A stretch of 64,000 nucleotides of DNA from an uncultured bacterium (GCA_964653455.1 CAZZFK010000008.1:21949-85948); one strand, 5' to 3'; shown: positions 9,348-48,171, numbered from the stretch's first letter. Notes: generated from the sequence alone by a model not told the origin. Made by a program: numbers and translations.

Positions 9348-9368
9348 AGGACGGCACTCGGCCTCTGG

Positions 9369-14096: not shown

Positions 14097-14828
14097 CTAG
14101 GTTTTAGCTGTGATGTCCAGAGCTTCTCTCAGTTCAATAGTGCCTTCATAGATGGCTTTCCCTACGATGCAGCCTGTAACGTGGGGTATCTTGCTGAGTG
14201 CGTGGATGTCCTGTATGGTCGTGACCCCTCCTGAGGCTATGATATGTATGTCCAGGGCTTGTGATAATTTACTATATAAAGGAAGAGAGGGGCCTTGCAG
14301 CATGCCGTCCTTAGCGATATCGGTGATAATTGCTGTTGTGATGCCGAGATCACTTAGTTGCTGCAATACGCTCACTGCATCGGTCTTTGTATCCTCCAGC
14401 CATCCGGATACCTTGACCTGTCCATGTTCCAGGTCCACCCCTGCTATGATATGTTCTTTAAATGAACGGGCCGCTTCTTTTAGGATCGTCTGGTCCTTGA
14501 ATATGATGCTTCCCAGTATTGCGTAGCGTATCCCTGCCTCAAGATACTCTTTGATGGTCCCTATGGTCCTGATGCCGCCGCCCACTTCAAGTTCGCATGA
14601 TGTGTGTTTGGCCATCTCTTTTATGACGCCCATATTCATGGGCTTTCCGGCTTTAGCGCCGTCAAGGTCCACGATATGAATGCGCTTTGCTCCTGCTTTT
14701 TCAAAAGAGCGGGCGATATCTATGGGATTGCTGCTGTATACGGTAGAAAGGGCATAATCCCCTTTGGTGAGCCGGACACATTGGCCTTTCAGTATGTCGA
14801 TAGCGGGAATAACAGTGAACATGTGCAC
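14097..14828 (-). CDS. hisA: 1-(5-phosphoribosyl)-5-[(5-phosphoribosylamino)methylideneamino]imidazole-4-carboxamide isomerase HisA
   Basis: N-terminus MFTVIPAIDILKGQCVRLTKGDY matches the HisA signature (IIPAlDL…G..VRL.qGdy). (beta/alpha)8 barrel length of 243 aa. Confidence 0.9.
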   Translation of the reverse strand: MHMFTVIPAIDILKGQCVRLTKGDYALSTVYSSNPIDIARSFEKAGAKRIHIVDLDGAKAGKPMNMGVIKEMAKHTSCELEVGGGIRTIGTIKEYLEAGIRYAILGSIIFKDQTILKEAARSFKEHIIAGVDLEHGQVKVSGWLEDTKTDAVSVLQQLSDLGITTAIITDIAKDGMLQGPSLPLYSKLSQALDIHIIASGGVTTIQDIHALSKIPHVTGCIVGKAIYEGTIELREALDITAKT

Positions 14829-15319
14829 ACTGTATCATGGCCGCGAGGGGAATAAAATATGGTACTTATTGCGTATCTGTTCATGCTAGAAAAGATATAG
14901 GTATATTCTTTAGTAAAAATAACGCTAGACATCCCTCTTTTTTTTCTATATAATCTTTTAAAAATAAGCTTAAGTCCGTCTGTTAAGTATTAATGTAATT
15001 TATGTTTTTCTCTGTGGGGGAGAGAAATGTTCTTATCATGTGGGGGCATGAACCCCTTCATCTTTTTTATTCAATGTTCAGATCCTGGCATGTATCATGC
15101 TGGATCAGTTTCGTTATATGCTGTGTGTATCTTCCTTGTGTTCACTGTGTTCTTCCCTGGTCCTTGTTCTTTGTCATTTGCTTCTAAAGGTCCTTCCTTA
15201 AATACACCAATATCTTTCGATACATTTTCTGCCCCTCAACCTGTCGATAATAGCTATGTCGAGGAACCACGTCGCCAAAAACTATGTATAAGATCTAAAA
15301 CAGTGGGGAATACTTTGTC

Positions 15320-18300
15320 ATGATCATGCACACACGTACTTCTGGTTTACTTAAGAACGTACTGATGACCGCAGGCATTATGCTTTGCGTGTTCGGCAGT
15401 GCTCCCGCTTTTTCTTTGGAAACTCAAAATTTAGCGTTCACTGTTTCAGGTTCTTTTTCTATTCCTGCCGGTGCTACCAGTGTCAATCTTGCCGTTACCC
15501 TTGTCGGTGCCGGCGGTAATGGCGGAGACAGATATTATTCTACCGCGCTCTATTATTCACAAGGCGGCGGCGGCGGGAGCGGATATCTTGCGACCTCAGC
15601 GAACCTTATTCCTGCAGCATCAACGTATTATGTGGTCGTCGGCAGTCCTACGAACGTTGCTGCCGGGGATGGTTCTGCGACGCAGTTACGTGCAACTTCG
15701 GCCGCAGGTACGCTCCTCCTTTCCGCGACAGGCGGCACAGGCGGTATTACCGGAACAACGGTTAAAGGCGGTAATGGCGGCGGCGGTTACGGCGGCGGTG
15801 GCGGCGGCGGTGCATATCGTTCCGGCAATATCATTACCGGCGGGACTGGCGGCGCTGGATCTGCAGGTGCGGGCGGCAGCGGTGGTGCTGCTCTGGCCGG
15901 ATCTCGCGGCGGCGGCGGCGGCGGCGGTTACGATAGTATCGGTACCCCGGCAAGCGGGGGCACTGCTTCAGGTAATGCAGGAACAGGCGGTTTTGGCGGC
16001 GGCAATGGAGGTACGGCAACATCTGTAGGCGGTACGCTGCCTTCCGGCGGATACGGTCCGTATGTGAACGGTGCCTATCGCGGCAGCGGCGGTACAGGTG
16101 CGGGTTTTTCAGGTGCATTTTCAGCGGCGAACAATAAAGGTTCTAACGGATATGCGTACATCACGATGACCTATGCGCCGGACGTGACGCCCCCTGTGCT
16201 GAACGGTGTTCCGTATTATTCCAAACCATTCTCCTCGGGCACAATGATGTTTAAATGGTATGCGGCAAGTGACGGTACCGGGGCAGGGGTGAGCGACTAT
16301 TACTATGAAATATATCGGGATGAATGTGTGACAGATAATCTTGTCAGTTCCGGTTGGACAACAGGGCTTTCGTTCACGTATTCCGGAGGAATTCCCGGTG
16401 CGACCTATTATTGCCGTGTGAAGGCGCGTGATGCCGCTCCAACGCAGAACGTCAGTACGTTCTCGGATTACAGTCAGGGGCTGTTAGTTACGAACCCTGC
16501 AATAGTGGCAAAACAGCTGACCATACTGACAATAAAACCTTCCGGTTCCCAGGCTAAAAAAGATGCCCACGGATATTATTTCAACGGCAGTTCGGCGACG
16601 GCAGGTGACGGGTATGAACTTCGTGTAAATGATACAACGTCCGGTGAGCAGGCACATCCGTCACTAGCTGCTTTAAAGAACCGTAATTTTGTTGCGGTAT
16701 GGTCGAACGCCGGTAATATTTACGGTAAGATCATATCTCCTACCGGTGATATCGTTAAGGCTGAGTTCAAAATTAATGCATATTCTCAATATGATGCGCT
16801 GAGCTGTTATCCTCGTGTGGCAGGGCTTTCCAATGGGATGTTCGTGGTCGTGTGGGAGGTCTATAACAGCAGCGGCAAGCGTGATATTTATATTCGCCGG
16901 TTCGCGGCCGATGGAACTCCGTATAGTTCAACAGCCTCCGGGTCCGGCTCGACGACAGAAGTTCAGGTGGGAAATAATGTGCCTACGCTTGATAAGCGCC
17001 AGCCTGATATCGCGGCTTTGGGCAACGGCCGGTTCGTTGTCGTATTTGATATGACCTCGGCTTCGACAGGGAAAAGCGTCATTAACAAAGCAGTATATTA
17101 TGATACAGGTTCATTGTCTTCTCCGATCCAGCTTGTGGCGATAGCTCCCATCGATGCGGCACAGGACTGTGTATATCCGAGGGTCGCTTCGTTCGGCCCG
17201 ACGAGAAATGAGTACGCAGTGGTGTGGGGGACCGAATACAGCATCTCGAATCCGCCCAATCCGCCGAATCCTGCAGGGGGCGATATCTGCATGATATCGT
17301 ACGATAATGCGAATTTTGCGACCGCAAGCGCACGGCTTGTCAATCAAACAACTTCTTTGAAACAGTTCAACCCGGTCATTACGGGCTATGCGACCGGTTT
17401 TGCCGTGGCCTGGGCCAGCGAATCGGGGTCTGATATCGGGAATGACGGGTATTATTTTTATTATCGTAACTGGGGTATTTCCGGTTATCAAGCCAATGAT
17501 ACCTGGTCCAATGTCTTTTTCAGGCAATACGATGTGTATGGGGTTTCAACAAATGCTCAACAGATCGTTGAGCAGGGATCCAGGCTCACCAGTTATCTCG
17601 ATCCGGCGATCAATGCTATTGAATCGACCGCTTCTATTAACGGTATGATCGCTTTGTGTTATCTGAAAACTCAGGATTCAGAGGCTCTTCTGTACCAAAC
17701 GACATATACGATACCTGCGCATACTTCTGAAGTGTTCGCCAGATTCTACAGTCTGGAAGGTTCCTCCTTGTCGGATACCAGCACGACCATCAATACCTAT
17801 ACCGCAGGCATACAGGATGGTATTGCGCTGGCCTCTATGGGGGCAGTGGACAAGAGTTATTTAATGACTGCCTGGAACAGTGCCGGACAGGACGGGTCAG
17901 GTCTTGGAGTATTTGCGCGCCAATATGTCATCGGACCTCGGGTATTGAATCTTACCCGCGGGAAATCGTATGCGACCATACAAGCGGCATTGGACGACGC
18001 GGAGAATAATGATCAGATAGTGCTGATAGAAGGTGTCTTTAATTTAGATGAACCCTTGATCTTCAAGCCGGGGCTTAAAGTGACCTTGCGTGCTTATACT
18101 GAACAAGGTGTGAGCCGGGCTAATACTATTATCTCCGGGCAGTATGTGTCGCGGCTCATGGAGTTCGGTGCAGGGGTGAGCGTCAGTATCGAGAATCTGA
18201 CCTTGGTGCAGGGGGCTGTAGAAGAAACTAACGGGTACTTTGGTGCGGTTGTTTCCTGTAATTCCAGCGCAAAGTCTGAGCTCTTTTTCCGTAATGTTTT

Positions 18301-21300
18301 GTTCAAAGATAATTATGCAGCACAGGGCGGGGGTGTGATGTTCCTTCAGGGCGCAACAAGGGCCAAGGCTCCGGTGGTTCTCCTGGAAACATGCGAATTC
18401 AGCAATAATTACGCGGCAGACCTGGGCGGCAGTGCGATATATGCGGTCAATGCGAGCGTTACGGTCGACAGATGCTTGTTCAACGGAAATAATTCCACCG
18501 CTGCCGGCGGTGCTATCTATTCGCTGGGGTCGTATATATACGCGTTCAATTCGACCTTCCTTTCCAATAAAGCGTCCACCTATGGCGGCGTGTATTATGG
18601 AGGAGAGGACCCGACCTCCGGTCAGGACGGTGAACTTCTCGCGGAGCGTTGCACGTTCGCCCGCAACAGTGTGGCCAGCACGGGACGCGGCGATGTTCTT
18701 TATTTGGCGAACAATACCGCGTTCACGGCCCGCAATTGTCTGTTCCATCATAATTACTTGTCCACTGCGCAGACGTATGCCATGGTGATCAATACGAGCA
18801 GCAGGGCATATTTCTATAATTCCACGTTCTCTGCGCACAGAGGGGTCGCTCTGTGGACCGCAGGGGCTAACTCTATTTTTCAAGCGTATAATACGTTGTT
18901 CACGGATTGCGGGCCGGCCACATCAATGTTCGCAGGGACAGCACTGGATGCCATCGTAGAACACTGCAGCGTTGATGAGGCGTTGCCTTCAAAGATCGGG
19001 ACGACCGGGACCATAGTCGGCGATCCCAAGATAGCGTTCTCTTCCTATCCATTCCTGGTCAAGGGTTCGCCCTGTGTGGATTCAGGTATCTATCTAGCGG
19101 ATGTCACTGTCGATATCGAGGCAGTCGCTCGTCCTCAGGGAGTATCTTATGATATCGGTGCCTATGAAGGGGCACGACTTTTTGTATCCGATCTGTACCC
19201 GGGAAATTCCTTCGCCGCTCCGCAAGATCTGCAGATACAGGCAGTGCTCTGGATGGTCTCCTGTAATGCGCAGTATCCTCTGACGGTGACAATAAATGAT
19301 CTTAACGGTGCTACCAAGGACGCGACGCTGGTCTTCTTGTCCACGGAAACGTTATATCAGACCGATAAATATCAAGGGATCATAGTCCGGGTCGACGACA
19401 CGCATTCGAGGCTCCTGGTATATGCCAAGGACAGTTCGTTCCTGGAGAACGGCGATCATTTCAGTGTGCAGATCAATTCCGTCCATACACCGCCCCGCGG
19501 AGAGCTCTATCGGACCGATGATCCGGAACCTTTCTTTAATGATGAGCAGATGGAATTCTTTGTGGCAGGTGTCCCGTTCCTGAGCGAATGGTATGCGGGA
19601 GGGCTTACGCGGAACAATACGGTCTCCTATAACAGTTCAGTCGGCAATGGTGCGGATATCGATCAGGACGGGTATCCGGACCTGATCGTCGGTGACGCAG
19701 GCTTTAACGGCGAGACCGGTCAGGCGTTCTTGTATTATGGCGGTCCTGAACAGGAACGCGATGTGAAAGCGGTCTTTACGGGTGTGACCCCTAACTCACG
19801 GTTCGGGGCTATGGTCGGTATGGCCTATATCAATAAGGACGGGTATGGGGATGTGCTCATCGGGGCTCCTGGCGAGAAAAAGATCTACCTGTATTACGGA
19901 ACAAAGGCTTTGGCAGGAGCGTCCGCGCTGGATACGGAGCACCCGTCCTTTGTCATCACGGCGCCGGATGACAGTGCGTATGGGTTCGGCGAGAAGTTCG
20001 ATGTCGGCGATGTGAACGGTGACGGCTACGATGATATCGTGGTCGCGGTCCCTTCATATAATTCCGACGCGGGTGCGGTGTTCGTGTATAACGGCAGGAG
20101 CCTGCTGGCCGGCGGAAAGAGTTCCGCAGCGACCTACAGAACTCTTTCAGGCAGCGGGCAGGGTTTTGCCCAGGCGGCGATAGTCGGCGGTGATCTTGAT
20201 CTGGACGGTGTCGAAGATATCGTTGTCGGTCTTCCGGACGGCGGTACGGATAAAGCAGGTCTGGCATACGTCTACTTTGGTGCGGCGGGTACCCCTGATT
20301 TCTTTACGGCAGGGTCTCTGATGACCAAAACCCTGCAGGCGCAGGTGCCGGCAGCAAATGATCATTTCGGGTATTCACTGGCGAAAGGGAAAGATATCAA
20401 CCATGATAATTTTGCGGATATCCTGGTCGGCAAGTACACGGAACCGGGAGATTCGGGGTGCGCCTGGGTCGTATATGGCGGGGTACGCAGTGATATCGGC
20501 AGTTCCGTCAAGGTACGGACCATCGTTCAGCCGCGGGATATTGAGCGTGATAATGAGAATGTTTCTGCGAACAGCAGTGCTCAGCAGTTCGGTATCACGG
20601 TCGCCTCCGCAGGAGACCTTGACGGTGACGGCTATGATGATTTCATGGTCGGTGCACCGTATGCCGGCAGTACCGGGATGGGCATGATCTTCGTATATAT
20701 GGGGGGTAAGCTCATCGATGAAAGTTTTGATGCGTACAATTTCAACGGTTATGTGATAGCCGGTCATGATGCCGGAGCGCACACCGGGGCCTCGCTCTTG
20801 AACATCCAGGATTATAACGCTGACGGATATGATGAAGTGGCGTTCAATGACCGCTTTGCAGGCAAGAACACGGTGCATGTCATGTATAACGCGGCTGCGA
20901 CCGATATTGCCGCGCCGGTCATCACCTATGCGATGCCTCGGACCGGGATGGCGGGTGTTCCGGAAAATCCGACATTTAATATCACTATCTATGACAGAGG
21001 GAAGAGCGGCTTGAACCTGGCCTCGATCGAAGTTCGTTTGTATCCTCGCGGCATGGGAGAGGCGGATTCTCTTGAAGCCTATCTTCAGAGGAAGATCATC
21101 AACAGTGCGGGACTTGATACTGCCGGCAGTACCGGGTTCAATTCAGCGCAGGTCAAAGATGCATATATGGTCCTGACCCTTGCTTCCGGCGTGACGGTAC
21201 CTATTGCCGCTGGTATTCCGGTCGATGACTATAATGATGCTCTGGGGATGGTAAAGGCGATCAGCATATATTTCACCTTGAACGACGTTTTGGAGAGTTC

Positions 21301-27300: not shown

Positions 27301-30300
27301 TATCGATGACGGGGCCGAATATTCTCGCCTGATGGTCTTTGTTTCCGCGAACGCCGTTGATGATATGGGCGTCGTGGATATCTTTATTTCCGGTGATGTG
27401 ACGAACAATGGCCTTACAGAAGGCATGACAACGGTGGATGCCTGGGTCTCGGCGAACGCAGAGGACTATGCGATCTATCTTGATCCGTACCTTTCAGAAG
27501 GGTATCGCAATCTTGAACCGTCTGACGGTAAACGTATCGTGTCGGTCAAGTTCCGCGATGCTCAAGGCAATGTCAGCGCGATAGCGACGGATGATATCCT
27601 CTTGTCCTATTTCTCGACGGAAGGACGTCCGGTCATCAGCAAGTTCTTCATCAATGGTGCTACCAGGGCGGCCGCCGAGAAGGCCAAATTCACATCAAGC
27701 AATACGGTAGCGCTCTATATCGACGGGTTCGATGTGGAAGGTGTTACTCCGACCACGGAGGGCAAGATCGTTGCCTATAGGCTTATGGGGCATATCACTG
27801 CCAATACCCAGGTGGAACCGGGTAAATGGTATCCTTATCCTGCGACCAAGATCATTCCTGCCGTCGCGCTCGCGACCAGTGAGGGTATCCGTACCATCGC
27901 CATGCAGTTCCTTGATCGTGATTATATTACCGCCAATGCGACTGACAGCGATGTCGTTGTTCAATTAGCGGCCATCAATGATCAGACGGCATCTATCAAT
28001 AGTCTTGGACGCACAAGTTCCTGGAACTATGCCTCGATCACTTTTGACCGGACCCCGCCGTTCTTCAATTTCTGGCTCAATAATCCGGTGAATATGTATC
28101 GTTCTTCATACTTTTGCCGTTCTGAAGGGAAATTGAGCGGTTCATGGAAAGCTTCGGACACATATTCAGGTATAGCCCGGTATGATTATTGTATCTATGA
28201 GGTCTCTCAGAACACAGGCTGGGTGACGGCAAGCCTTTCATATGAGACCTCGACGAACTATACGCTGATCCAGGCCTGGAAGACCGTGCCGGCAGCGCAG
28301 ATAATCAATGACCTGGCAACGGTCACATCGAACCTTGCGCTTGAGTCAGGTAAGGACGGTTATTGTTTTGTGGTCAACGCTATCGACGGTGCAGGCAATG
28401 TGGCCCAGGTCACGACCAATCTGTTGGCCGTTGATATAACCAAGCCGTATGCGACGGTGTACTATGATTCCAGTGCGCTATTATCCCGCCCCGTATTCGA
28501 TATCGATTTTGCGGATGACAGAGCGGGCTTGTACCAGGTGTCCGTCGCGTTGAACAATAAATTCGGTGCACAGCGCATCATTACGAACATCAATGAAGAT
28601 GAGGTCGGCATACCGAGCAAGAACGGTGCGTACCGTACCCTGTACAGCAAGAACTGGCGGCTGGATGATGATATCTGGGCCGATCTGGCTGAAGGCGAGA
28701 ATACGCTCTATTTCAAGATAACCGATGCGGCAGGCAATGTGGTCTATCCGTCCGACAGCGACTCGACTGGAGAAACAAGCTATACGTTCATTAAAGACAC
28801 GCTGGCGCCTACAGGTACGGCCCGTTTTAACGGCGGAGCGCTGTATACGAAGAACCTGGTTACGACGGTGAACGTTGATTTCTCCAGTGAAGGCTATTTC
28901 GGTATGGTATATATGACCAGGTATCCCGTGTCAGAGGATATGTTCCTTGAGGACCACAGCTTTGAGGATGCCGGTGATCTTGGGGTCCTCCCGAGCTGGA
29001 ACATGGTCATGAACGGGCTTTCCTCCTCGCAGGTATCGATGAGCGTGAAATTGTTCGGTTCCACCGCCACGACCAAGAATACCGCCTGTTCCATAAAGGA
29101 CGGTCTGTACGGTCTGGTCGTCAGCTTCAATGTCTCCACGCAGGGGAATGAGTCCGCGAAGCTCGGCGGGTGGGCTTTACAGAAACAGGTGAACATTGCC
29201 ACCGCGAACGTTACCTACAATTTCCACGGGTTCGTGAACGTGGCCAATATCTCGGGTATCGCCACCGGGTCGGAATGGATCGTGGCGGACGTGAGCTATT
29301 ATGATTCAACGCTCGGTCAGACGGTCCGGGTGGTCTGTCCCGATACCATATGGAACGGCGAAGCGGACAGCAAGAGCGGCTGGAACATGTTCCAGGGGAA
29401 TATATTCATCCCGAACAACAGCGAGGTCACGCTCCGGTTCACGTTCGGCGCGAAAACCTGGCAGAATACGAACGGCTATATCGTACTCGATGATATCAAC
29501 TTTATACCGGGTGGCGACCTGGTCGTGACCGAGAACAAGAGCATCTCGTTCCTGTATAACTTGGAATCGGGAGATGACGGGTATCGCAAGATCTATGTTG
29601 CTGCCCGCGATCAGGCCGGCAACTGGAAGAACAGCGAAAAGTCCATTTTCTATGACACCACACCGCCTTCCTTTAATGCGCCGAACTGCGGTGTACAGTT
29701 GTATACCATCTCGGGCAACGGTACATATCAAAAAAATAATACCAAACTGATGTGCGGGTATCGTGCCGACGACGGGCTCGGATCAGGTGTATCATTCTAT
29801 ACCTATACGATCGATGTCAGTATGATGGTCACTGCGGACGCGGACGGTGACCTGGTAGAGCCGGTCTGGACAGAGTACAAGAGCGTATCCGGGAAAACGG
29901 CAGTGCTGACCACCGATGATATTCCGACCAGACGCAATACGTCATACCGCTATCGTGTCCGTGCGGTGGATGCTCTGGGCAATACCAGTAATTATACGAC
30001 GAGCAATGTCGTCATCGTCGATGTGGATGCGCCGCAAAGCTTTGTGACGGTCTCGGCATCTCTGCCGGACGGTATCAATCCGCAGGGGTCCGGCTGGTAC
30101 AAGGATGGTCCGATCCTTGTGACGATATCCGCCGTTGACCATTCACGGGTCTTCAATACACTGTACGATCTGCCGACGCGCAATGGCTGCGGAGTCTCGA
30201 CAATTAATTATGTGAAAGGGTATGTACGTGACGGGGTGGCCGTTCTTGAACCGACCGTGAGCGTGACGATAGTATCCCCCACACAGGAAGTGACGGTCGC

Positions 30301-33300
30301 GATTGATCATGCAGGGCAGAACCTGTTCGGGTATTGGGCATCGGACGCGCTGGGGTGGACAGAAACGCCGAACTGGGTCAATTCCGAGAATCTCCATATT
30401 GATAAGGACGCGCCGGTCGTCACGAGCAACCTGCATATATACAGCTATCCGAACGCGAAGCGTTGGTTCAGTGCCGATAATCTTCCGGTGGAATATACCC
30501 TGGACGATCAGTTACGCGCCCATGTCGTGAGCGGGAACCTGCTGCATCGGGCCGATCGTCTCGGTGACGGTACATCCAGACTGTATTACAAGGTCGATGA
30601 TAATCCGACCGGCAATCTGTACGCTGATCGGCGCGAATTAGGGTCCATCTTCCCGTTCGCGGTCCTGCCGACATTGAACGGCGAGATCACCGGCTGGGAT
30701 AAGACCGCGGCCGCCGGCCTCAGTCCGTACGTGGAGCCGTTCACGCTGCGCAGTGCCGACGGCGTACTGCCTCCGCTCGACGGTGAAGGCGTGCATATCG
30801 TGTATTATTGGGCGGAAGATAAGTATGAACATGTTTCAACGGTGAATTTTGTCGATGATATACGCATCGATAACGGCAAGCCTGAGCTCAGTCTTAATAT
30901 GGGCGGCAGCTTCCAGACCGTATGGTGCACGGACCCTGCCGGCATTCAGGCCATTATCGAGGTCAGGGATTTCTATGAAACGCCGGTCTCTTATAATTCC
31001 GCATGGTATCGCGGTCAAATGCCTCCTTCAGGCTGGATGATCGATGAAGGGGAGAAGACCATAATCCCGGGTTCGGGTATCAAGAGCTTCTGGTACCAGC
31101 TGAACTCAGAAATACCGACCGAGGTCACGTTCCCCGGGGAAGAAGATCCGCTCATCGATTATCTCGAGTATCGTTTCACGAAGACCTTCGTGGTACCGAT
31201 CATGACCAACGGGTATAACGTACTGAGATATATCATTACGGATAATGCCTATAATGTGGCGGACATACATTCCGGGCATCTGGAGTGGCATTCGGACCTT
31301 CGTTCCTGGATATCGGACTCCGATACGGGCATGATCAGGTACATACGTCTGGACAATGAACCGCCGACGGCAGCTGCAGTGCTCCTGAACCGGTATAAGG
31401 CCGCCCCGTTATATACGAACAACCGGTTGGTCTCCTGTAACCTGCAAGCTCAGGATTTCGGTATCGGCGTGAAATACGCGATGATCTACGGCTATGATGA
31501 TTCCATACCCGATGCGGAGAATAATCCGTACGCCTGGACGGCACTTGAGCCGACGATCAATGTTCTGTACCAGTTCTTTACGACCAATACCTGGAACATG
31601 ATCGCGGATACGGATGCGGACCGGTATTGGGATTTCGATAACAATCGCAGCCCGCGTGCGATCGTTGATATGCATAAGTACATATATCTCGAGGATAGGG
31701 ACGGAACAAAGAACGTGCAGGCGGTCTTCGCCGATGATTTCGGCATGCCGTATGAGAGCGTGTCTGCCGATGAAGAATGCGCGTACGTGACATATCAGTC
31801 CTGGAGGGATAATGTGTCCGCGAACGGACAATATCCCGTGTTCACCACGGCGGAGAAAGCACGTCTTGATGCGATCCCGTTCGAGAAGTGGCCGACACGG
31901 GCGGTGTACATCGCGCGCATGCCTGCGATAGAGAACCATGCCAGCGTGACCGCGAGCACGCTCATCATCCTCGATCGTCAGATCGTGGCGGGCAGTGTCA
32001 CGTCCAGTACCGTATTACAGACCAAATATGGCCCGTATGTGACCACCCGGAACGTTAAGCTGTCCATCTCGCATGATGATCCCTCAGAGCTGAGCGGCAT
32101 CGACGCCGTGATGATCTATGGCGACCTTGCGGAGAACGGGAAGAACAATGTATGGCTGCCGTACACCTCCGGCAGCAGCCAGGATATCACGGTGCTCATC
32201 CCTCAGGCGGAGTACGATTCTGTCACTATCGACCTGTACGTGGTCTGGCGCGATCGTGCGGGCAATATCAGCACGCCGGTCACGATGAGCTTCCAATATG
32301 AAACACCTATGCAGGCGGATAATCCGCAGTATCGTATCAATTTCCCGACCGCGGGATGGTATATGACCACACGTAATGTCTCGGTGCTCCTGAATTTCCC
32401 GGGAGCGAACTATGTACACTTTGTCGGCGATGTGGATAGCACGTTCAGTACCTTGAATTACAGAACGAACGTTTCCTGCATGCTGTCCGAAGGTGATGGC
32501 CTGAAGGCCATGGGTATCTGGCTCGAGGACCGGCTGATCTCGACCATCACCATGACCCAGAACTTCCTGCTCGACCGCTCTGCACCGTCCGGTACGGACA
32601 ATGTGAACACCGGTATCATCTATGAGGACCAGAACGGTGCGACCTTCACGCTTTCCTTCTCTGATGTACCGACACCCGGCATCCAGGTCTCCGGCATCAA
32701 GAAGATCTATTATCAGATCAATAGTGAGGCCGTGGTCACCGTGGAAGTGCGTGATGCTTCCGGCTATTATTCGGCGCCGACCGCGAACAAGATCACGGTC
32801 ACTATCCGCAATAAGAGCGCGCATAATCAGTTGAAGTATTGGGCGGAAGATATGGCCGGGAATATATCCGCGGTCACTGCGATAAGCGGTATCAAGGTAA
32901 ATACGCTGCCGATAGCGGTACCGCAGCTCAGTCCGGTCACGGTCAATCGGTACACGGATGTGCTCCCCGGAGAGGACGTGTATTACGTGAACAGCAGGAC
33001 CGTGACCTTCAATTTCTCCGCGGTGAATGCGGACCGCATGTGGCTCTATGGCGATATCGTTGAGGACGGAACGGGACCTGTGGTCATCACGGTCGGCGGC
33101 GTCACCAAGCGTTCCGTTCAATTGACCGGCGCCGAGAATGTCGTACAGCATGTACGTGTCGTCTATGGCGATGATTTCTCGAGCATCGGAGGTAAGACCA
33201 TCTCGACCACGCTCAATATCATCCTTGATACGGTAGCTCCGGCCAGCCCGTCCCTTGTGTCCCTGTCGGCGCAGGTCAGCGCGTCAATATACTGTACCTC

Positions 33301-34240
33301 CATCACACCGTTGCGCTTCCGAGTCCATGGTAACGGTTCGGATGTGGGCAGCCAGTCGATCGCCATCAAGAAGAACGGCGTCGATGCGGTACGGTCCAGC
33401 GAGGATGTGACCCTGGTGAGCAAGCTCGCTGTGGATTTCGCGAAGCCCGGAGAGCAGAGCGTGTTCTCCGTCGTTGCCCGCGACCGCGCCGGCAATGAAA
33501 GCGTACCGGTGACGTTCAATGCCCTGTTCAATCCCAACGGCGGTGTGCGTCTCCTCTCCGGCGATCTGCCTGACGATGTTGATGTGACCGTCGAGGTCGT
33601 GGACCCGAACGATGAACGGATGCAGCAGGCCAATAAGAAATTGAAAGGAGTTATTGCGAACACCCCGCTTGAAGGTACCGTACGCGATTTCACGGCGAGC
33701 GGAGATGTTTTCAACGGCACCGAACTTGAAATGGTCATGCCGTTCCCGACCGCGCTCGGCAGCATCAACCCGTATGACCTGAGGATATATACCTATGATC
33801 CTCTGACCGCCAAGTGGGTACAGGTCCAGGGTGAACATGTTGTCGATCTCGAGGCCCGGGTGATCCGTGTACGCGTCACGCACTTCTCGATCTATCGCGT
33901 GTTCGCGGTCAGACCGTTCGCGAGCAGTCTTTCCAGTGTTCGCGTATACCCGAACCCGTTCAAGCCGGATTCAGGCGACCGCAGCCTGGGCGGTGCGGAG
34001 GATACGTCATATATCACGATCGATAATATCACGCAGACCGCGAAGATACGTATCTACACGATCTCCGGAGAGCTGGTCCGTATCATCGAGGCTGACGAGG
34101 GCGTATCGCAGCTGGAATGGGATGCGACCAACACCGAAGGGGAGCAGGTCGCCAGCGGTGTATACATTTACCTGATCACCGATAAGGACGGACATAAGAA
34201 GATGGGCCGCATAACGATCATACGCGGAGAGGTAGAGTAG
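15320..34240 (+). CDS. Giant secreted multidomain surface protein (6306 aa): Gly-rich region, Pmp-like beta-helix, 3x FG-GAP propellers, Ig-like/cadherin-like domains, LamG-like domain, T9SS-type C-terminal sorting domain
   Basis: A single uninterrupted 18,921-nt ORF. Signal peptide MIMHTRTSGLLKNVLMTAGIMLCVFGSAPAFS. A Gly-rich low-complexity region spans roughly residues 60-270. A right-handed beta-helix with GGAI/FxxN-type repeats (AAGGAIYSLGS…FNSTFLSN) maps to about nt 17940-19170. Three blocks of FG-GAP repeats carry DxDxDG calcium loops (for example DVNGDGYDDIVVA, GDLDGDGYDDFMVGAPY) at about nt 19620-20850, 21470-22400 and 23370-24850. Numerous beta-sandwich domains follow, then a C-terminal VRVYPNPF…GVYIYLIT domain. 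Confidence 0.9.
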   Translation: MIMHTRTSGLLKNVLMTAGIMLCVFGSAPAFSLETQNLAFTVSGSFSIPAGATSVNLAVTLVGAGGNGGDRYYSTALYYSQGGGGGSGYLATSANLIPAASTYYVVVGSPTNVAAGDGSATQLRATSAAGTLLLSATGGTGGITGTTVKGGNGGGGYGGGGGGGAYRSGNIITGGTGGAGSAGAGGSGGAALAGSRGGGGGGGYDSIGTPASGGTASGNAGTGGFGGGNGGTATSVGGTLPSGGYGPYVNGAYRGSGGTGAGFSGAFSAANNKGSNGYAYITMTYAPDVTPPVLNGVPYYSKPFSSGTMMFKWYAASDGTGAGVSDYYYEIYRDECVTDNLVSSGWTTGLSFTYSGGIPGATYYCRVKARDAAPTQNVSTFSDYSQGLLVTNPAIVAKQLTILTIKPSGSQAKKDAHGYYFNGSSATAGDGYELRVNDTTSGEQAHPSLAALKNRNFVAVWSNAGNIYGKIISPTGDIVKAEFKINAYSQYDALSCYPRVAGLSNGMFVVVWEVYNSSGKRDIYIRRFAADGTPYSSTASGSGSTTEVQVGNNVPTLDKRQPDIAALGNGRFVVVFDMTSASTGKSVINKAVYYDTGSLSSPIQLVAIAPIDAAQDCVYPRVASFGPTRNEYAVVWGTEYSISNPPNPPNPAGGDICMISYDNANFATASARLVNQTTSLKQFNPVITGYATGFAVAWASESGSDIGNDGYYFYYRNWGISGYQANDTWSNVFFRQYDVYGVSTNAQQIVEQGSRLTSYLDPAINAIESTASINGMIALCYLKTQDSEALLYQTTYTIPAHTSEVFARFYSLEGSSLSDTSTTINTYTAGIQDGIALASMGAVDKSYLMTAWNSAGQDGSGLGVFARQYVIGPRVLNLTRGKSYATIQAALDDAENNDQIVLIEGVFNLDEPLIFKPGLKVTLRAYTEQGVSRANTIISGQYVSRLMEFGAGVSVSIENLTLVQGAVEETNGYFGAVVSCNSSAKSELFFRNVLFKDNYAAQGGGVMFLQGATRAKAPVVLLETCEFSNNYAADLGGSAIYAVNASVTVDRCLFNGNNSTAAGGAIYSLGSYIYAFNSTFLSNKASTYGGVYYGGEDPTSGQDGELLAERCTFARNSVASTGRGDVLYLANNTAFTARNCLFHHNYLSTAQTYAMVINTSSRAYFYNSTFSAHRGVALWTAGANSIFQAYNTLFTDCGPATSMFAGTALDAIVEHCSVDEALPSKIGTTGTIVGDPKIAFSSYPFLVKGSPCVDSGIYLADVTVDIEAVARPQGVSYDIGAYEGARLFVSDLYPGNSFAAPQDLQIQAVLWMVSCNAQYPLTVTINDLNGATKDATLVFLSTETLYQTDKYQGIIVRVDDTHSRLLVYAKDSSFLENGDHFSVQINSVHTPPRGELYRTDDPEPFFNDEQMEFFVAGVPFLSEWYAGGLTRNNTVSYNSSVGNGADIDQDGYPDLIVGDAGFNGETGQAFLYYGGPEQERDVKAVFTGVTPNSRFGAMVGMAYINKDGYGDVLIGAPGEKKIYLYYGTKALAGASALDTEHPSFVITAPDDSAYGFGEKFDVGDVNGDGYDDIVVAVPSYNSDAGAVFVYNGRSLLAGGKSSAATYRTLSGSGQGFAQAAIVGGDLDLDGVEDIVVGLPDGGTDKAGLAYVYFGAAGTPDFFTAGSLMTKTLQAQVPAANDHFGYSLAKGKDINHDNFADILVGKYTEPGDSGCAWVVYGGVRSDIGSSVKVRTIVQPRDIERDNENVSANSSAQQFGITVASAGDLDGDGYDDFMVGAPYAGSTGMGMIFVYMGGKLIDESFDAYNFNGYVIAGHDAGAHTGASLLNIQDYNADGYDEVAFNDRFAGKNTVHVMYNAAATDIAAPVITYAMPRTGMAGVPENPTFNITIYDRGKSGLNLASIEVRLYPRGMGEADSLEAYLQRKIINSAGLDTAGSTGFNSAQVKDAYMVLTLASGVTVPIAAGIPVDDYNDALGMVKAISIYFTLNDVLESSEGYELEVKAQDWGAVLPAYQYTGQYFSGLALTPNIISFSTNQKLFVSGNTGTNVKSIGDFNGDGLDDVAVFTPGATYGEIYNTTNASWFVGIPAPGTNANKGYVLLYFGGPDIKFDTPNVILVGGDTSGTFATDVFGIPQVTLTHADSGDVYHDVVVLEGKAVNDSGYSRVHVFSGQAMDKTDTPVIMSNGVPSQVSKNVYIDRGIPLYDINGDDYPDIAVSDGGTSNAVYVLYGSGTGFQTNKSVISGPAGSAFGSALAECGRTLVIGAPNASYGDFEYRGAVGVVANNTDETLLPDKIVAVGEMWLGARAGAHFGASLASGYFNDTYTSPNTVATGAYPDIAIGAPNDDQFAENAGSVTIFFGKSALFTPLPVATPDVVLLPESIDSEFGTRLAAAKYLSTPAHYKRWALGYDRYNKDYFDNYDDLIVSARTYDNAMASTTGNGKIYIYAGGTTLSQTADAGYLGGAREELSLITNGGDVLGMNSDSLFVIKASEGAGQFYLLQNRDIPDTVYPTFVRVYPPNDSYDVSVDSDIIFEVSDASGILKESLIVYRYRKDYTDTSREIVKAGVVADKSQTNPIKEYELVSADIGSSGTTVRFTLSPHPQNYEPLPGEYPAGQWTESEPVNVDLYIGDKRTVWVSDTKKNIQSLMTKLNYGFMTKFKANEAQKIQLLGEEDMPNTYFGSSIASVGDVNADGYTDFVIGEYGNNQYGPYSGKAYLYLGSGDFYELARADLTLTLGSGTASSRFGYKVAPAGDMNNDGYDDVAVTALNSGSTGAEVFVLFGGPGVISGLNSARWDLTFLNTYATVVQGAYPQDGFGTAVYGNGDINGDGYDDLLIGAPYTDIDSKEEAGRVYVILGRKYESSYGQTGARHLNPDNEGGARGPIRATELAELSADTLSSFDPSDTNGTLRGFCISGTTAYERFGSAVMSGVNINGDTAVVAVNNAANVNATKNTEVSELLIGAPGTSHAKGAVHVYSFNTGTKVLSRATLLTGEAEGDQFGSSLTSMGDMTNDLELLGTEYEEFAVGAPYNNANGTDAGSAYLYLGKSDCASVTSAYLAFYGQNAGDAFGYALANVGNVDNDQYGNNDLAISAPFNARGGKNAGRVYIFGSALSSEKPHTLVMDKMADYANEGEAGYVFGYDVSGLGDLDGDFVPEYLIGAPSYASNNIENRGRVFLYTNPDDFGPTLNLAWLNPQDGSTGNKKVHSYFDETLSATVNIPLTIRLYAKDNRIVYINGSSVELRGEDENKAYTYRFSNPVTGVNYYTIHNRKIVEFFVVHPYYRYGEMVDVTANIIDVCGNKLGANMALTPNYMGAPYTFRFQVEENPYDGPSKLVAKVNPVPDTNGAGLYGDSKLYTDNPNISVALAARDMKGGVCYVNFGMGSLDIMQVVDNIPVSQLSGLAGAVTADMFDDDGSTAITFNINVSANNFKVYNPYSSFGRATLSSGDGVKTFAFQAWDMSLNPSEVVTVSIILDTLPPTISERCPTPGSTGVANQVSVSFTASDAGSGINLENLSVVVARGADRYQYFVPYGLQSVVFAPFTENCSTNTSVADYFAQINNGSLQDGIGCISTEGIADLSAGTMLRSGSSVYNDGVISLTLSGFDYTQDALELAFRSDITVEGIVEQGYALSLERVSGQTYSRLSLKKVLPKSTVVLATRNLTTVDSSQTAPRLQVVMNGSYLKVFWNNELKIEMQDNTYITGRVGIAAPAGKHIALDQIDIVRLPAITITAGDDADTQLVHQNNFENDTAEFTNGTDVAAGRVDDPDTDGIEPINQVLRLTSSPTTISFYTDASSIPGLASDHVINFKYLVSNAGSAGTVFFRVQDQNNGYILSLEGSTVRWGKLVNGTYYDSESGWCATSDITLASRTNAVNEWSSYTLKVNGTKFTLLQDAVVLSSVTDVDAAHPAFISGGFGFAAIGGNIIYLDDLSASNILKNKLYATISLPYFNYEDEISISINIEDMTAADYPTHRIVDHFSFTVSPDYRAPYDPSVVIDDGAEYSRLMVFVSANAVDDMGVVDIFISGDVTNNGLTEGMTTVDAWVSANAEDYAIYLDPYLSEGYRNLEPSDGKRIVSVKFRDAQGNVSAIATDDILLSYFSTEGRPVISKFFINGATRAAAEKAKFTSSNTVALYIDGFDVEGVTPTTEGKIVAYRLMGHITANTQVEPGKWYPYPATKIIPAVALATSEGIRTIAMQFLDRDYITANATDSDVVVQLAAINDQTASINSLGRTSSWNYASITFDRTPPFFNFWLNNPVNMYRSSYFCRSEGKLSGSWKASDTYSGIARYDYCIYEVSQNTGWVTASLSYETSTNYTLIQAWKTVPAAQIINDLATVTSNLALESGKDGYCFVVNAIDGAGNVAQVTTNLLAVDITKPYATVYYDSSALLSRPVFDIDFADDRAGLYQVSVALNNKFGAQRIITNINEDEVGIPSKNGAYRTLYSKNWRLDDDIWADLAEGENTLYFKITDAAGNVVYPSDSDSTGETSYTFIKDTLAPTGTARFNGGALYTKNLVTTVNVDFSSEGYFGMVYMTRYPVSEDMFLEDHSFEDAGDLGVLPSWNMVMNGLSSSQVSMSVKLFGSTATTKNTACSIKDGLYGLVVSFNVSTQGNESAKLGGWALQKQVNIATANVTYNFHGFVNVANISGIATGSEWIVADVSYYDSTLGQTVRVVCPDTIWNGEADSKSGWNMFQGNIFIPNNSEVTLRFTFGAKTWQNTNGYIVLDDINFIPGGDLVVTENKSISFLYNLESGDDGYRKIYVAARDQAGNWKNSEKSIFYDTTPPSFNAPNCGVQLYTISGNGTYQKNNTKLMCGYRADDGLGSGVSFYTYTIDVSMMVTADADGDLVEPVWTEYKSVSGKTAVLTTDDIPTRRNTSYRYRVRAVDALGNTSNYTTSNVVIVDVDAPQSFVTVSASLPDGINPQGSGWYKDGPILVTISAVDHSRVFNTLYDLPTRNGCGVSTINYVKGYVRDGVAVLEPTVSVTIVSPTQEVTVAIDHAGQNLFGYWASDALGWTETPNWVNSENLHIDKDAPVVTSNLHIYSYPNAKRWFSADNLPVEYTLDDQLRAHVVSGNLLHRADRLGDGTSRLYYKVDDNPTGNLYADRRELGSIFPFAVLPTLNGEITGWDKTAAAGLSPYVEPFTLRSADGVLPPLDGEGVHIVYYWAEDKYEHVSTVNFVDDIRIDNGKPELSLNMGGSFQTVWCTDPAGIQAIIEVRDFYETPVSYNSAWYRGQMPPSGWMIDEGEKTIIPGSGIKSFWYQLNSEIPTEVTFPGEEDPLIDYLEYRFTKTFVVPIMTNGYNVLRYIITDNAYNVADIHSGHLEWHSDLRSWISDSDTGMIRYIRLDNEPPTAAAVLLNRYKAAPLYTNNRLVSCNLQAQDFGIGVKYAMIYGYDDSIPDAENNPYAWTALEPTINVLYQFFTTNTWNMIADTDADRYWDFDNNRSPRAIVDMHKYIYLEDRDGTKNVQAVFADDFGMPYESVSADEECAYVTYQSWRDNVSANGQYPVFTTAEKARLDAIPFEKWPTRAVYIARMPAIENHASVTASTLIILDRQIVAGSVTSSTVLQTKYGPYVTTRNVKLSISHDDPSELSGIDAVMIYGDLAENGKNNVWLPYTSGSSQDITVLIPQAEYDSVTIDLYVVWRDRAGNISTPVTMSFQYETPMQADNPQYRINFPTAGWYMTTRNVSVLLNFPGANYVHFVGDVDSTFSTLNYRTNVSCMLSEGDGLKAMGIWLEDRLISTITMTQNFLLDRSAPSGTDNVNTGIIYEDQNGATFTLSFSDVPTPGIQVSGIKKIYYQINSEAVVTVEVRDASGYYSAPTANKITVTIRNKSAHNQLKYWAEDMAGNISAVTAISGIKVNTLPIAVPQLSPVTVNRYTDVLPGEDVYYVNSRTVTFNFSAVNADRMWLYGDIVEDGTGPVVITVGGVTKRSVQLTGAENVVQHVRVVYGDDFSSIGGKTISTTLNIILDTVAPASPSLVSLSAQVSASIYCTSITPLRFRVHGNGSDVGSQSIAIKKNGVDAVRSSEDVTLVSKLAVDFAKPGEQSVFSVVARDRAGNESVPVTFNALFNPNGGVRLLSGDLPDDVDVTVEVVDPNDERMQQANKKLKGVIANTPLEGTVRDFTASGDVFNGTELEMVMPFPTALGSINPYDLRIYTYDPLTAKWVQVQGEHVVDLEARVIRVRVTHFSIYRVFAVRPFASSLSSVRVYPNPFKPDSGDRSLGGAEDTSYITIDNITQTAKIRIYTISGELVRIIEADEGVSQLEWDATNTEGEQVASGVYIYLITDKDGHKKMGRITIIRGEVE
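33938..34237 (+). other. T9SS-type (Por_Secre_tail / FlgD-Ig-like) C-terminal sorting domain of the giant protein
   Basis: VRVYPNPFKPD…AKIRIYTISGELVRII…EWDATNTEGEQVASGVYIYLIT matches the hallmarks of type-A CTDs (YPNP motif, …iYd.sGrlV…, GvYfy…). Confidence 0.6.
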
Positions 34241-34274
34241 GTCTTTTCCCGGATAAAGGATATACGGATGATGG

Positions 34275-34306
34275 ACAGGGGCCGCATTATGCGGCCCCTG
34301 TCTTTT
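34275..34306 (+). terminator. Rho-independent terminator downstream of the giant gene
   Basis: A perfect GC-rich hairpin caggggccgc-atta-tgcggcccctg (10-bp stem) is followed by tcttttat. Confidence 0.6.
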
Positions 34307-34504
34307 ATGTATAGGGCCGTATTTCTTTTGCTAAGCCCCTTTTTTAGTAAATCCCAGGTATAAAAAGTCGTTCAGGTGGGCATACCTACAGAGGATAGGC
34401 GAACATGAAAATGGACCAGATAAAAGGCATACATTTTTTTAGTGTTCAATGACGATAGTATGGGTGTACAGCACCATACATGCATTTCTTTTGTGGGGGA
34501 AGAA

Positions 34505-35698
34505 ATGAAAAAAGATATCAGGACGGTAATCATTTCTTTATTGATCATGTGCGTTTGCGTAGCCTCGGCACAGGCCGGCGGCGTAGGGACTTCAGGCGCG
34601 AACTACCTCAAGATCGATGCGGGCGCACGTTCTGCGGCCCTTGGCAGTGCGTATGTGGGTCTAGCCAATGATATCAACGCGTTGTACTTCAATCCTGCAG
34701 GTCTTGTTGCTATTCCGCATGCGGCCGTTGATACGATGCAGCTCAATTGGCTGGCGGATATCACGCAGCAGCAGATCGCAGGCGTTATTCCGGTCGAGGG
34801 CTGGGGCGTGTTCGGAGGTTATTATTCCAGTCTTGCCACACCGTATGATAAAGAGACCAAGTATGATTCGGCGTACGGATATGCGTCCACGGGGGATCAA
34901 TTCAACAGCGAAGTGAAGGTCATTGATGTCGCCTATGCCTTTTCCATCAATAAAGAACTGAGCGCCGGTCTGGGCGTGAAGACCATCGAAGAACGTCTGG
35001 CCGATGTCAAAAAGACCGGCATGGCGGCGGATGTCGGTCTGCTGTATCGGGGCTTCTTTTTCAAGGAACTGTCGGTCGGTGCGGTCGTTCAGAACATCTC
35101 GGTATCTCCTCTTCGAACGGACGAGCCGCTCCCGCAGACGATCGTTATCGGGATGGCGTATACGATGAGCTTGTTCGAGACGCAGCGCCTGACCTTCCTT
35201 TCGGACGTCGGGATCCCCAATGACGGTGTAACCGCGCTGGGTGTCGGGGTTGAATATGCACTGAACCGCTATATCGCTTTCCGCGTGGGATATAAGGATA
35301 AGGTCGGGTTCACATTGGGCGGCGGACTTTCGTTCGGCAACCTTAATCTGAACTATGCATATGTGCCGTATGGGGAGCTGGGCAATTCGTATCGTATCGC
35401 CGTCGGCTATGATTTTGATACTGTCGATACTGAAGGAACGGTCGAAACGCCTGTCGAGCCGGTGAAAGAAATGACCAAAGAAGAGCTGTTCAAGGAAGAA
35501 AAGAAGGCCGCTCCGGCAGTGAAACCGGCCGCTACAGCGGTCGAGAAAAAGATAGAAACGCCGGCTGCCGATAATAAGTCCTTGTTCGAAGAAGCGAAGC
35601 CTGTTGAGACGGAAAAGAAGGTCGAAACTCCTGCCCCAAAAGCGGTAGAAGCGGTCCCGACGGTAAGTGCGGGATTCGACGGTCTCTTCGATCAATAA
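34505..35698 (+). CDS. FadL/TodX/PorV-like outer-membrane beta-barrel protein with a Lys/Glu/Pro/Ala-rich C-terminal tail
   Basis: Signal peptide MKKDIRTVIISLLIMCVCVASAQA. The N-terminal motif LGSAYVGLANDINALYFNPAGL parallels the FadL N-terminal hatch motif ([25 protein letters not shown]). A barrel-like amphipathic C-terminal strand ends …RIAVGYDF, followed by about 90 aa of low-complexity KEPA-rich sequence. The start is set at the in-frame ATG 34505. Confidence 0.65.
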   Translation: MKKDIRTVIISLLIMCVCVASAQAGGVGTSGANYLKIDAGARSAALGSAYVGLANDINALYFNPAGLVAIPHAAVDTMQLNWLADITQQQIAGVIPVEGWGVFGGYYSSLATPYDKETKYDSAYGYASTGDQFNSEVKVIDVAYAFSINKELSAGLGVKTIEERLADVKKTGMAADVGLLYRGFFFKELSVGAVVQNISVSPLRTDEPLPQTIVIGMAYTMSLFETQRLTFLSDVGIPNDGVTALGVGVEYALNRYIAFRVGYKDKVGFTLGGGLSFGNLNLNYAYVPYGELGNSYRIAVGYDFDTVDTEGTVETPVEPVKEMTKEELFKEEKKAAPAVKPAATAVEKKIETPAADNKSLFEEAKPVETEKKVETPAPKAVEAVPTVSAGFDGLFDQ

Positions 35699-35754
35699 CG
35701 AATACCGGGCAGTGAATAACTAACGACGGTCCGTTATCTACTGAGCGCTGTTCG

Positions 35755-36381
35755 TTATTTTTTTGTATGTTCGATGAAGTTCTTCAGTATCATCAATCCC
35801 CACGGGCTGCTTTTTTCCGGATGGAACTGGGTCGCGAAAACAGTGCCGTGTTCAATGGCTGCCGTGAACGGGATGCCGTACGAGCTTTGTCCGCTGACGA
35901 TACTTGTGTCATCCGGTCTTGCGTAGTACGAGTGCACGAAATAAAAGAACGCGTTATCGGGTATCCCTTTGAACAGGACCCCCGGTCTTTTTTGTTCGAC
36001 CTGGTTCCAGCCCATGTGGGGTATCGGTAGGCGTTCCGTGGCAGTATCGCCGAAGCAGAACAGGGGGACAGTCCCTTTTATAAGCCCGAGCCCCGCCGTA
36101 TCCGGAGACTCGTCCCCGCGCTCAAAAAGGACCTGCAGCCCGAGGCATATGCCCAAGAACGGTGTTCCCTGCGCGACCTTTTCTTTGATGATCGATATCA
36201 GGCCGTACTCCTTGAGGTTCTTCATGGCCGCACCGAAGGCCCCGACGCCCGGCAGGATCAGTGCGTCAGCGCTTTCTATGTCCTTGGGACTGGATGAGAT
36301 GAGCGCGGAATATCCGAGCTTTTCAATGCTTTTTTGCACGCTGCGGAGATTACCCATGCCGTAGTCGATTATCGTCAACAT
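35755..36381 (-). CDS. hisH: Imidazole glycerol phosphate synthase glutamine amidotransferase subunit HisH
   Basis: MLTIIDYGMGNLRSVQKSIEKLGY plus a class-I GATase triad (GICLGLQ…, C-terminal H/E). 208 aa. Confidence 0.9.
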   Translation of the reverse strand: MLTIIDYGMGNLRSVQKSIEKLGYSALISSSPKDIESADALILPGVGAFGAAMKNLKEYGLISIIKEKVAQGTPFLGICLGLQVLFERGDESPDTAGLGLIKGTVPLFCFGDTATERLPIPHMGWNQVEQKRPGVLFKGIPDNAFFYFVHSYYARPDDTSIVSGQSSYGIPFTAAIEHGTVFATQFHPEKSSPWGLMILKNFIEHTKK

Positions 36382-48168: not shown

Positions 48169-48171
48169 TCC

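Follow-up and report, generated by a model that had tools for sequence, protein, structure and literature searches.

Genes between hisH and hisA

This analysis concerns a stretch of 64,000 nucleotides (nt) of DNA from an uncultured bacterium (GCA_964653455.1, CAZZFK010000008.1:21949-85948), the whole of which is referred to here as the window, and in particular the interval that separates its hisH and hisA genes. Both genes are on the minus strand and in the canonical order, but they are 20,926 nt apart (14829-35754). The interval consists of two plus-strand genes, one for a giant protein of 6306 residues and one for an outer-membrane β-barrel, together with spacers of 491, 201 and 56 nt. This layout was recognised in the original prediction, and analysis of the open reading frames (ORFs) confirms both the positions of the two his genes and the two opposite-strand genes that fill the space between them. 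The locus belongs to a poorly sampled bacterial clade, whose closest named relative is labelled Candidatus Margulisiibacteriota. The features of the interval and of the genes that border it are as follows.

13455-14084, minus strand: gene for a His_Phos_1 family phosphatase (Pfam His_Phos_1, 185 bits)
14097-14828, minus strand: hisA, ProFAR isomerase (TIGR00007, 255.5 bits against a cutoff of 229)
14829-15319, no strand: divergent spacer between hisA and the giant gene, 491 nt, GC 0.369
15027-15323, plus strand: unverified ORF of 98 residues with a hydrophobic segment, whose TGA overlaps the ATG of the giant gene (ATGA)
15320-34240, plus strand: giant gene, a single ORF of 18,921 nt encoding a predicted Sec-exported, multidomain, adhesin-like surface protein of 6306 residues
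34273-34303, plus strand: hairpin resembling an intrinsic terminator, with a 14-bp stem containing 10 G-C pairs and a 3-nt loop, followed by TTTTAT
34442-35698, plus strand: gene for an outer-membrane β-barrel of the PorV/PorQ family (NF033709, 131.1 bits against a cutoff of 90)
35699-35754, no strand: convergent spacer between the barrel gene and hisH, 56 nt, sharing no repeat with the other border beyond chance
35755-36381, minus strand: hisH, the glutaminase subunit of imidazole glycerol phosphate synthase (TIGR01855, 232.5 bits against a cutoff of 105)
36461-37411, minus strand: gene for a ROK-family sugar kinase (Pfam ROK, 224 bits), upstream of hisH and forming a unit with it

The window HisA is 100% identical to the database protein P0128. 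Database gene calls for hisA begin two codons later, giving 241 rather than 243 residues. A search of the 64-kb window with the proteins of three reference his operons matched only hisH and hisA, in agreement with the original prediction that hisB and hisF do not flank them. The arrangement resembles the canonical his operon (hisG-D-C-B-H-A-F-IE) in that hisH precedes hisA on the same strand. It differs in the 20.9-kb gap, and in that each his gene is paired with a gene of another kind: hisH with the ROK gene, and hisA with the His_Phos_1 gene, which lies directly downstream of it after a gap of 12 nt. With hisH not abutting hisA, and no other his gene adjacent to either, the locus is not a canonical his operon.

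Conservation of the interval and inferred origin of the hisH-hisA separation

An identical hisH is present in three independent Logan assemblies of the same species (L001-L003), two of which show the same barrel and giant-gene neighbours. Four further lineages (L004, L005, L006 and L095) have a HisH that is 57-64% identical to that of the window, and 60-71% identical among themselves; their genomic GC is 0.41-0.49, as against 0.53 here. On the contigs that run past hisH (L005, L006 and L095), the next gene is an opposite-strand PorV-like barrel, the L095 contig ending inside the barrel gene, and the hisH-barrel arrangement of L004 agrees as far as its contig reaches. The giant FG-GAP gene follows the barrel gene in both relatives with a long enough contig (L005 and L006). 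A ROK gene is found upstream of hisH wherever the contig extends that way (L001, L004, L005 and L095).

The whole interval can be compared with that of GCA_042562495.1, a relative whose HisH is 57% identical and whose label, Candidatus Margulisiibacteriota, was given by the depositor. Here hisA and hisH are on one contig of 53,366 nt and are 21.5 kb apart, and the interval contains the same module as in the window, besides two extra genes next to hisA. The identities to the window are 59% for hisA, 83% for GroEL and 76% for PyrD, and the GC content differs by about 11 points. The collinear order runs from PyrK/PyrD through a sigma-54 regulator, a BNR-like gene, His_Phos_1, hisA, the giant gene, the barrel gene, hisH, ROK, a FlgD_ig protein and an SLH protein to GroES/GroEL. 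The giant protein of this relative has 5874 residues and aligns in order with residues 1364-3123 and 3642-6304 of the window protein, at 38-44% identity; the stretch between residues 3123 and 3642 fell outside the DNA of the relative that was compared. The two genomes differ in a MORN gene, a 271-residue ORF, a 12-kb block of Tad and PKD genes, two small genes, and an N-terminal extension of the giant protein.

Every relative with a contig long enough to include this site has the module there, and no empty site was seen in this small sample. Turnover is limited to the hisA-proximal edge, and the module itself is part of the conserved backbone. The original prediction had described the interval as a recombination or accessory hotspot, a description that is not supported for the module itself.

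The composition of the interval is also that of its surroundings. The interval has a GC of 0.531, as against 0.524 outside it. The giant gene has a GC content at third codon positions (GC3) of 0.62, the other genes of the window ranging from 0.48 to 0.72, and its distance to them in relative synonymous codon usage (RSCU) is among the smallest. The orthologous giant gene of the 42%-GC relative has 41-43% GC and a GC3 of 0.34-0.35, like its own flanks. The giant gene thus resembles its host in both cases, and the module tracks the host in both genomes.

Signs of mobility were looked for with equally little result. As the original prediction had stated, there is no integrase or transposase in the interval, either among its genes or among the antisense ORFs, which have no match to Pfam or other families. 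The sole tRNA of the window is at 58947, and none is near the interval. The longest word shared by the flanking intergenic borders is 10 nt, compared with a mean of 9.2 and a maximum of 12 in shuffled sequence; this is within chance, and no repeat family is found at the borders. The original prediction had pointed to these borders, and to GC, codon usage and tetranucleotides, as places where an insertion might have left a trace. GC, GC3 and RSCU are native, and only the tetranucleotide correlation is modestly lower (0.79 compared with 0.88).

These results bear directly on the idea that an island of giant and barrel genes was recently inserted by horizontal transfer between an adjacent hisH and hisA. 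Such an insertion would account for the canonical order and strand that the two his genes keep across 21 kb, for the fact that every intervening gene is on the opposite strand, for the AT-rich spacer at one border, and for the modest tetranucleotide deviation. It is at odds with the finding of the same content and order in lineages with 57-64% HisH identity and a GC content 4-12 points apart, with the collinear orthologue of the giant protein, with GC, GC3 and codon usage that are native in both genomes, and with the lack of repeats, tRNA, integrase or transposase. A recent insertion is therefore very improbable, and insertion of the module can be upheld only if it took place long ago, before the sampled clade arose. 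The original prediction allowed for either an insertion into a former his operon or a conserved but unusual arrangement. The comparison of synteny gives the same order of hisA, giant gene, barrel gene and hisH in GCA_042562495.1, and the same hisH side in the other relatives. Because the order is kept in divergent relatives and the composition is native, the second option is supported, and the first, in its recent form, is not. We estimate a probability of about 0.9 that the interval is a conserved native locus, inherited vertically rather than recently inserted.

A number of observations weigh against this reading. Sampling is thin, and only one relative has both ends of the interval on one contig; the hisA contigs L088 and L096 stop 142 and 479 nt upstream of hisA. 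The tetranucleotide correlation with the flanks is lower inside the interval (r 0.79, compared with 0.88). We attribute this to the encoded repeat protein, which is rich in G, A, S, T, D and N, because codon measures corrected for amino-acid content show nothing. The next clade out, with a hisA 47% identical, has no hisH within 10 kb of hisA. In one of its outgroup loci (L090), polyketide synthase (PKS) genes are found in place of the giant gene. Another (L092) encodes a protein of 2386 residues, homologous to the C-terminal third of the giant protein, whose gene is 3.2 kb from hisA in the same divergent orientation.

How hisH and hisA came to be apart can be considered against a baseline of 80 genomes, obtained from a HisA scan of genome contigs and representing distant phyla only (HisA identity at most 46%). 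In these genomes hisH abuts hisA in 55 and is within 1 kb in 58, while 21 have no hisH within 10 kb. Since adjacency is found in 55 of the 80, and since order and strand are preserved here across 21 kb, we infer that hisH and hisA were once neighbours and were parted long ago. Gain or growth of the surface-protein genes would have separated them, no later than in the ancestor shared by the sampled lineages. After the split, ROK-hisH and hisA-His_Phos_1 would have been stably inherited as separate small units. Later turnover in the window lineage would have comprised the loss of two small genes and the gain of about 1,240 residues at the N-terminus of the giant protein.

The two his genes might instead have been dispersed from the start and never split by the module, their nearness and orientation being due to chance. 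This would fit with the absence of any other his gene within 64 kb, with the 21 of 80 distant genomes in which hisH is not within 10 kb of hisA, and with the outgroup loci L090 and L092, which have no hisH near hisA. However, by a rough estimate, not a computed one, chance would place two given genes within 21 kb of each other, on one strand and in pathway order, in well under 1% of cases for a genome of a few megabases, and in other genomes hisH is most often found directly upstream of hisA (55/80). Coincidence is accordingly an improbable explanation, if not a negligible one.

It could also be supposed that the module is kept between the his genes by functional coupling, for example by co-regulation through the divergent spacer. 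Its position beside both his genes is indeed conserved, and hisA and the giant gene share that spacer. Against this, the spacer contains no riboswitch or other RNA family, two other genes stand between hisA and the giant gene in the relative, and no known biology connects the two functions. Furthermore, synteny extends over the entire block, which exceeds 50 kb, and so no special explanation is needed. We give such coupling almost no weight. The preferred reading remains that of an old, conserved locus, and the split his geometry, striking as it is, represents old and stable synteny, which is therefore not to be pursued as a mobile element.

The variable hisA-proximal edge deserves a closer description. 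The original prediction described an AT-rich leader of about 490 nt in a region of about 57% GC. The AT-rich spacer is real, having 36.9% GC overall and 30% in its first 171 nt, but the region has 52-53% GC. The spacer has the lowest GC of 14 intergenic regions, though narrowly (the others range from 38.6% to 56.8%), so that it is no outlier. The promoters of hisA and of the giant gene are most likely both located within it, the best promoter-like site being at 14926-14954 (TAGACA-17-TATAAT). An Rfam search of the 491 nt matched no RNA family or riboswitch. The 98-residue ORF within it has no family match; its ATGA overlap with the giant gene is the pattern of translational coupling.

In GCA_042562495.1 (locus L087), two genes are found between hisA and the giant gene (7804-9788, minus strand), neither of which is present in the window. 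They encode a signal-peptide protein of 137 residues and a protein of 509 residues with a weak GILT/thioredoxin-like match. A comparison of the spacer and the 98-residue ORF with these two genes showed no similarity. Homologues of the 509-residue gene are found upstream of hisA in L090 and L092, which are more distant, and there is none in the window. The gene is thus probably ancestral and was lost in the window lineage, and the AT-rich spacer probably now occupies its place.

The giant protein and the PorV-like barrel

The original prediction called the giant gene adhesin-like, and its domain content shows this to be right in substance. The N-terminus resembles a signal peptide (MIMHTRTSGLLKNVLMTAGIMLCVFGSAPAFS). 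On inspection, residues 1-32 display a basic n-region, a hydrophobic core and an AFS|LE site, as is characteristic of a Sec signal. The remainder of the protein comprises a right-handed β-helix, FG-GAP repeats extending over about 1,700 residues, domains of lectin-like and Ig-like kinds, and a C-terminal domain of the FlgD_ig/CHU_C type. The Pfam matches are FG-GAP (216 bits), Beta_helix (45 bits) and FlgD_ig (35.4 bits, cutoff 27). Three regions need to be distinguished.

15416-19141, plus strand: lineage-specific N-terminal extension, approximately residues 33-1274, with a Gly-rich region and a β-helix (residues 982-1170)
19656-24802, plus strand: region of FG-GAP repeats (integrin-alpha-like, DxDxDG), approximately residues 1446-3161, matching Pfam FG-GAP and FG-GAP_3
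33944-34237, plus strand: C-terminal sorting domain (residues 6209-6306) of the type-A kind linked to type IX secretion systems (T9SS) (TIGR04183, 25.3 bits against a cutoff of 23)

The N-terminal extension, of about 1,240 residues, has no counterpart in the orthologue of GCA_042562495.1. Window residues 1275-1338 align with residues 86-158 of the relative, and those from 1364 onward with those from 738 onward. A homology search with an N-terminal piece of 1220 residues found no orthologues, just weak matches to repeat proteins. GC3 is 0.50 in the first 3 kb of the gene and 0.60-0.70 in the remainder, which suggests that N-terminal domains were accreted later. The DNA of the FG-GAP region contains diverged repeat families (D1, D3 and D4).

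The C-terminal domain is the best-conserved segment of the protein: three lineages agree at 57 of the final 108 positions, the overall pairwise identity being 38-47%. It also matches the C-terminal domains of PorZ and PorU, and in the PDB it matches 5m11, the PorZ C-terminal domain (E 2.8e-5). CHU_C scores 26.6, slightly under its cutoff of 27, and the type-B model TIGR04131 fails, at 16.2 against a cutoff of 35.

The barrel protein has 418 residues when counted from a GTG; an ATG at 34460 is a likelier start and gives 412 residues. It had been described in the original prediction as FadL/PorV-like, which is correct in substance. It passes the PorV/PorQ family model and fails the FadL/TodX model of Pfam (PF03349, Toluene_X; 22.4 bits against 29.7). 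An AlphaFold2 model has a mean predicted local distance difference test (pLDDT) score of 85.7. The best folds in the PDB are those of PorV from Flavobacterium johnsoniae (8gl6_F, E 2e-14, and 6h3i_F), in structures of the T9SS translocon with bound substrate, followed by FadL/TodX, and the superposition on solved PorV has template modelling (TM) scores of 0.57-0.68 at 16% sequence identity. The barrels beside hisH in L005, L006 and L095 have 48-62% identity to that of the window, and the orthologues that share the tail described below are 54-62% identical. A metagenome scan with an alignment of the barrel found nothing.

The C-terminal tail of the barrel, about 95 residues rich in E, K and P (35420-35695, plus strand), is a low-confidence part of the model. 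It ends in LDGLFD, a motif kept in three lineages, and is a feature that canonical PorV lacks.

The barrel thus resembles PorV (6H3I, 8GL6) in its FadL-type fold, in its best structural match and in passing the NF033709 family model. It differs in failing the equivalog models, in its extra tail of about 95 residues, and in being encoded beside one cargo gene, where PorV is a general shuttle.

A second pair of the same kind is located immediately beyond ROK-hisH, adjoining the ROK gene.

37551-39830, plus strand: gene for a 759-residue protein with a C-terminal FlgD_ig domain related to that of the giant protein
39854-44041, plus strand: gene for a 1395-residue protein that combines an N-terminal PorV-like barrel with five SLH and four Glucodextran_B domains

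The two genes are separated by 23 nt, and the pair is conserved in L004 and L005. The first 300 or so residues of the 1395-residue protein are PorV/PorQ-like, with 27% identity to the first barrel (E 1e-14) and an NF033709 score of 49.8 bits. Judged by its domains, this fusion is predicted to be in effect an outer-membrane barrel tethered to the cell wall.

The first pair is reminiscent of SprB and SprF of F. johnsoniae. SprB, of about 6,500 residues, is likewise a very large repetitive adhesin that has both a Sec signal and a sorting domain at its C-terminus, and its gene is beside that of a dedicated outer-membrane barrel which serves it. The present pair differs in that its C-terminal domain is type-A-like, its barrel is of the PorV/PorQ rather than the PorP/SprF family, and its closest named relative is outside the Bacteroidota and the Fibrobacteres-Chlorobi-Bacteroidetes (FCB) group. 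Type-B cargo genes of F. johnsoniae often show linkage to the gene of their cognate PorP/SprF shuttle, and type-A cargo uses the general PorV (PMC12618676). By analogy with this linkage of cargo and shuttle, we hypothesise that the giant protein would cross the inner membrane via Sec, and that its conserved C-terminal domain would be recognised by the neighbouring PorV-like barrel. The barrel would then escort the giant protein or hold it at the outer membrane, where it would be displayed as an adhesin. The interaction of the two proteins, surface display and the adhesin role are inferred from this parallel, and we regard the cargo-plus-shuttle mechanism as having about an even chance of being correct. 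The combination of a conserved native locus with this mechanism is, taken as a whole, the account that we consider probable.

There are several arguments on the other side. The C-terminal domain passes TIGR04183 only narrowly (25.3 against 23), and the barrel fails the equivalog models of both PorV (NF033710, 35.7 against 250) and PorQ (NF033711, 71.2 against 220). The literature confines the T9SS to Bacteroidota and the FCB group. The hairpin is a further difficulty. The original prediction had a perfect terminator hairpin (34275-34306) ending the interval; the hairpin is real, at 34273-34303, but it is located between the giant gene and the barrel gene. The 201-nt spacer that contains it folds with a z-score of -3.0, and an analogous hairpin is found 3' of the giant gene in L005, none being found in L006. 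Its position suggests separate or attenuated transcription of the two genes, and makes their co-transcription doubtful.

Another possibility is that the barrel does no more than transport hydrophobic substrates, as FadL-type proteins ordinarily do, and has no functional link to the giant protein, so that the adjacency is mere conserved synteny. The weak Toluene_X and FadL sequence matches, the FadL/TodX fold matches, the strong terminator between the genes and the very large size of the family (11,060 cluster representatives) are all in keeping with this. However, the best fold and the best family are PorV and PorV/PorQ rather than FadL, with Toluene_X under its cutoff; in three lineages the barrel gene is beside the gene for a cargo with a sorting domain; a second barrel, 2 kb away, is paired in the same manner; and conservation within the module is highest in the C-terminal domain and the barrel. 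We therefore think it rather unlikely that the barrel is an unconnected transporter, and retain the cargo-plus-shuttle hypothesis.

Much of the locus is ordinary. Margulisbacteria, Omnitrophota and phyla of the Planctomycetes-Verrucomicrobia-Chlamydiae (PVC) group have been reported to be enriched in huge proteins of 5,000 residues or more, and a secreted repeat protein of 6306 residues, with its nearest named relative in Margulisiibacteriota, is in line with those surveys. Because giant proteins are already known in Margulisbacteria, because standard annotation models would name both genes, and because the geometry is old synteny, the locus is for the most part unexceptional. The surveys do not describe the pairing of a C-terminal domain with a PorV-like barrel, or the his-gene context seen here. 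The remaining interest is taxonomic and mechanistic, in that there are two conserved pairs of sorting domain and PorV-family barrel, with their nearest named relative outside the phyla credited with a T9SS.

NCBI taxonomy places Margulisiibacteriota beside Cyanobacteria, and a literature search found no paper that links Margulisbacteria with the T9SS. No component of the T9SS core (SprA/Sov, PorK/L/M/N, PorU) was found in the 64-kb window or in about 40 kb of a relative, the only DNA examined. A non-FCB phylum might handle sorting-domain proteins by means of dedicated, gene-linked PorV-family barrels, with no canonical T9SS translocon or motor, although we consider this unlikely. If true, a minimal system of sorting domain and FadL-fold barrel would either have preceded T9SS shuttling in evolution or have arisen in parallel with it. 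Should the phylum label be correct and the T9SS core be missing, the pairs would show how FadL-fold barrels can recognise cargo outside the complete machinery; with the core present, they would extend the known range of the T9SS and of cargo-specific shuttles to type-A-like signals.

Other genes of the window

The His_Phos_1 gene is coupled to hisA in four lineages, with overlap of stop and start codons in three relatives (L087, L088 and L096). The genes paired with hisA in these relatives, and two homologues of the BNR-like gene described below, are as follows.

10720-11349 in L087: His_Phos_1 gene
862-1491 in L088: His_Phos_1 gene
1199-1828 in L096: His_Phos_1 gene
10844-14827 in L090: BNR-like homologue
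10765-14718 in L092: BNR-like homologue

The His_Phos_1 product could be a non-orthologous histidinol-phosphate phosphatase. A literature search found no paper joining His_Phos_1 and hisA terms.

The BNR-like gene (9369-13340, minus strand) encodes a surface protein of about 1,320 residues and is linked to hisA even in the outgroup clade, where the protein is 33% identical. It ends in a pair of Ig-like domains, the YPNP/YPHP motifs of which recall the C-terminal domains of the T9SS. A metagenome scan with an alignment of this protein found two short contigs, neither of which reaches the upstream side of hisA.

A MORN-repeat gene (7791-9347, plus strand) encodes 518 residues that resemble the LIC20035 adhesin below cutoff, and is flanked by a sigma-54 response regulator and the BNR-like gene. 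It is missing at that position in L087 and L088. The 271-residue ORF (5131-5946) has no match among the called genes of GCA_042562495.1.

Beyond the second pair is a block of about 12 kb (44042-56338) that contains genes of a Tad/Flp pilus (RcpC, a secretin, TadZ/A/B/C and a TadG-like protein), a PKD-domain gene and a 130-residue membrane ORF. L004 and L005 have no such block, and there the SLH gene abuts GroES/GroEL. The Tad block is a better candidate for a lineage-specific insertion than the hisA-hisH interval. Genes for ribosomal proteins L1, L10 and L11 and for NusG are located at 59-63 kb. At the start of the window (17-2745, plus strand) are the flagellar export genes flhB, of which the C-terminal part is present, and flhA; together with the Tad genes, they suggest that the organism probably has flagella as well as pili.

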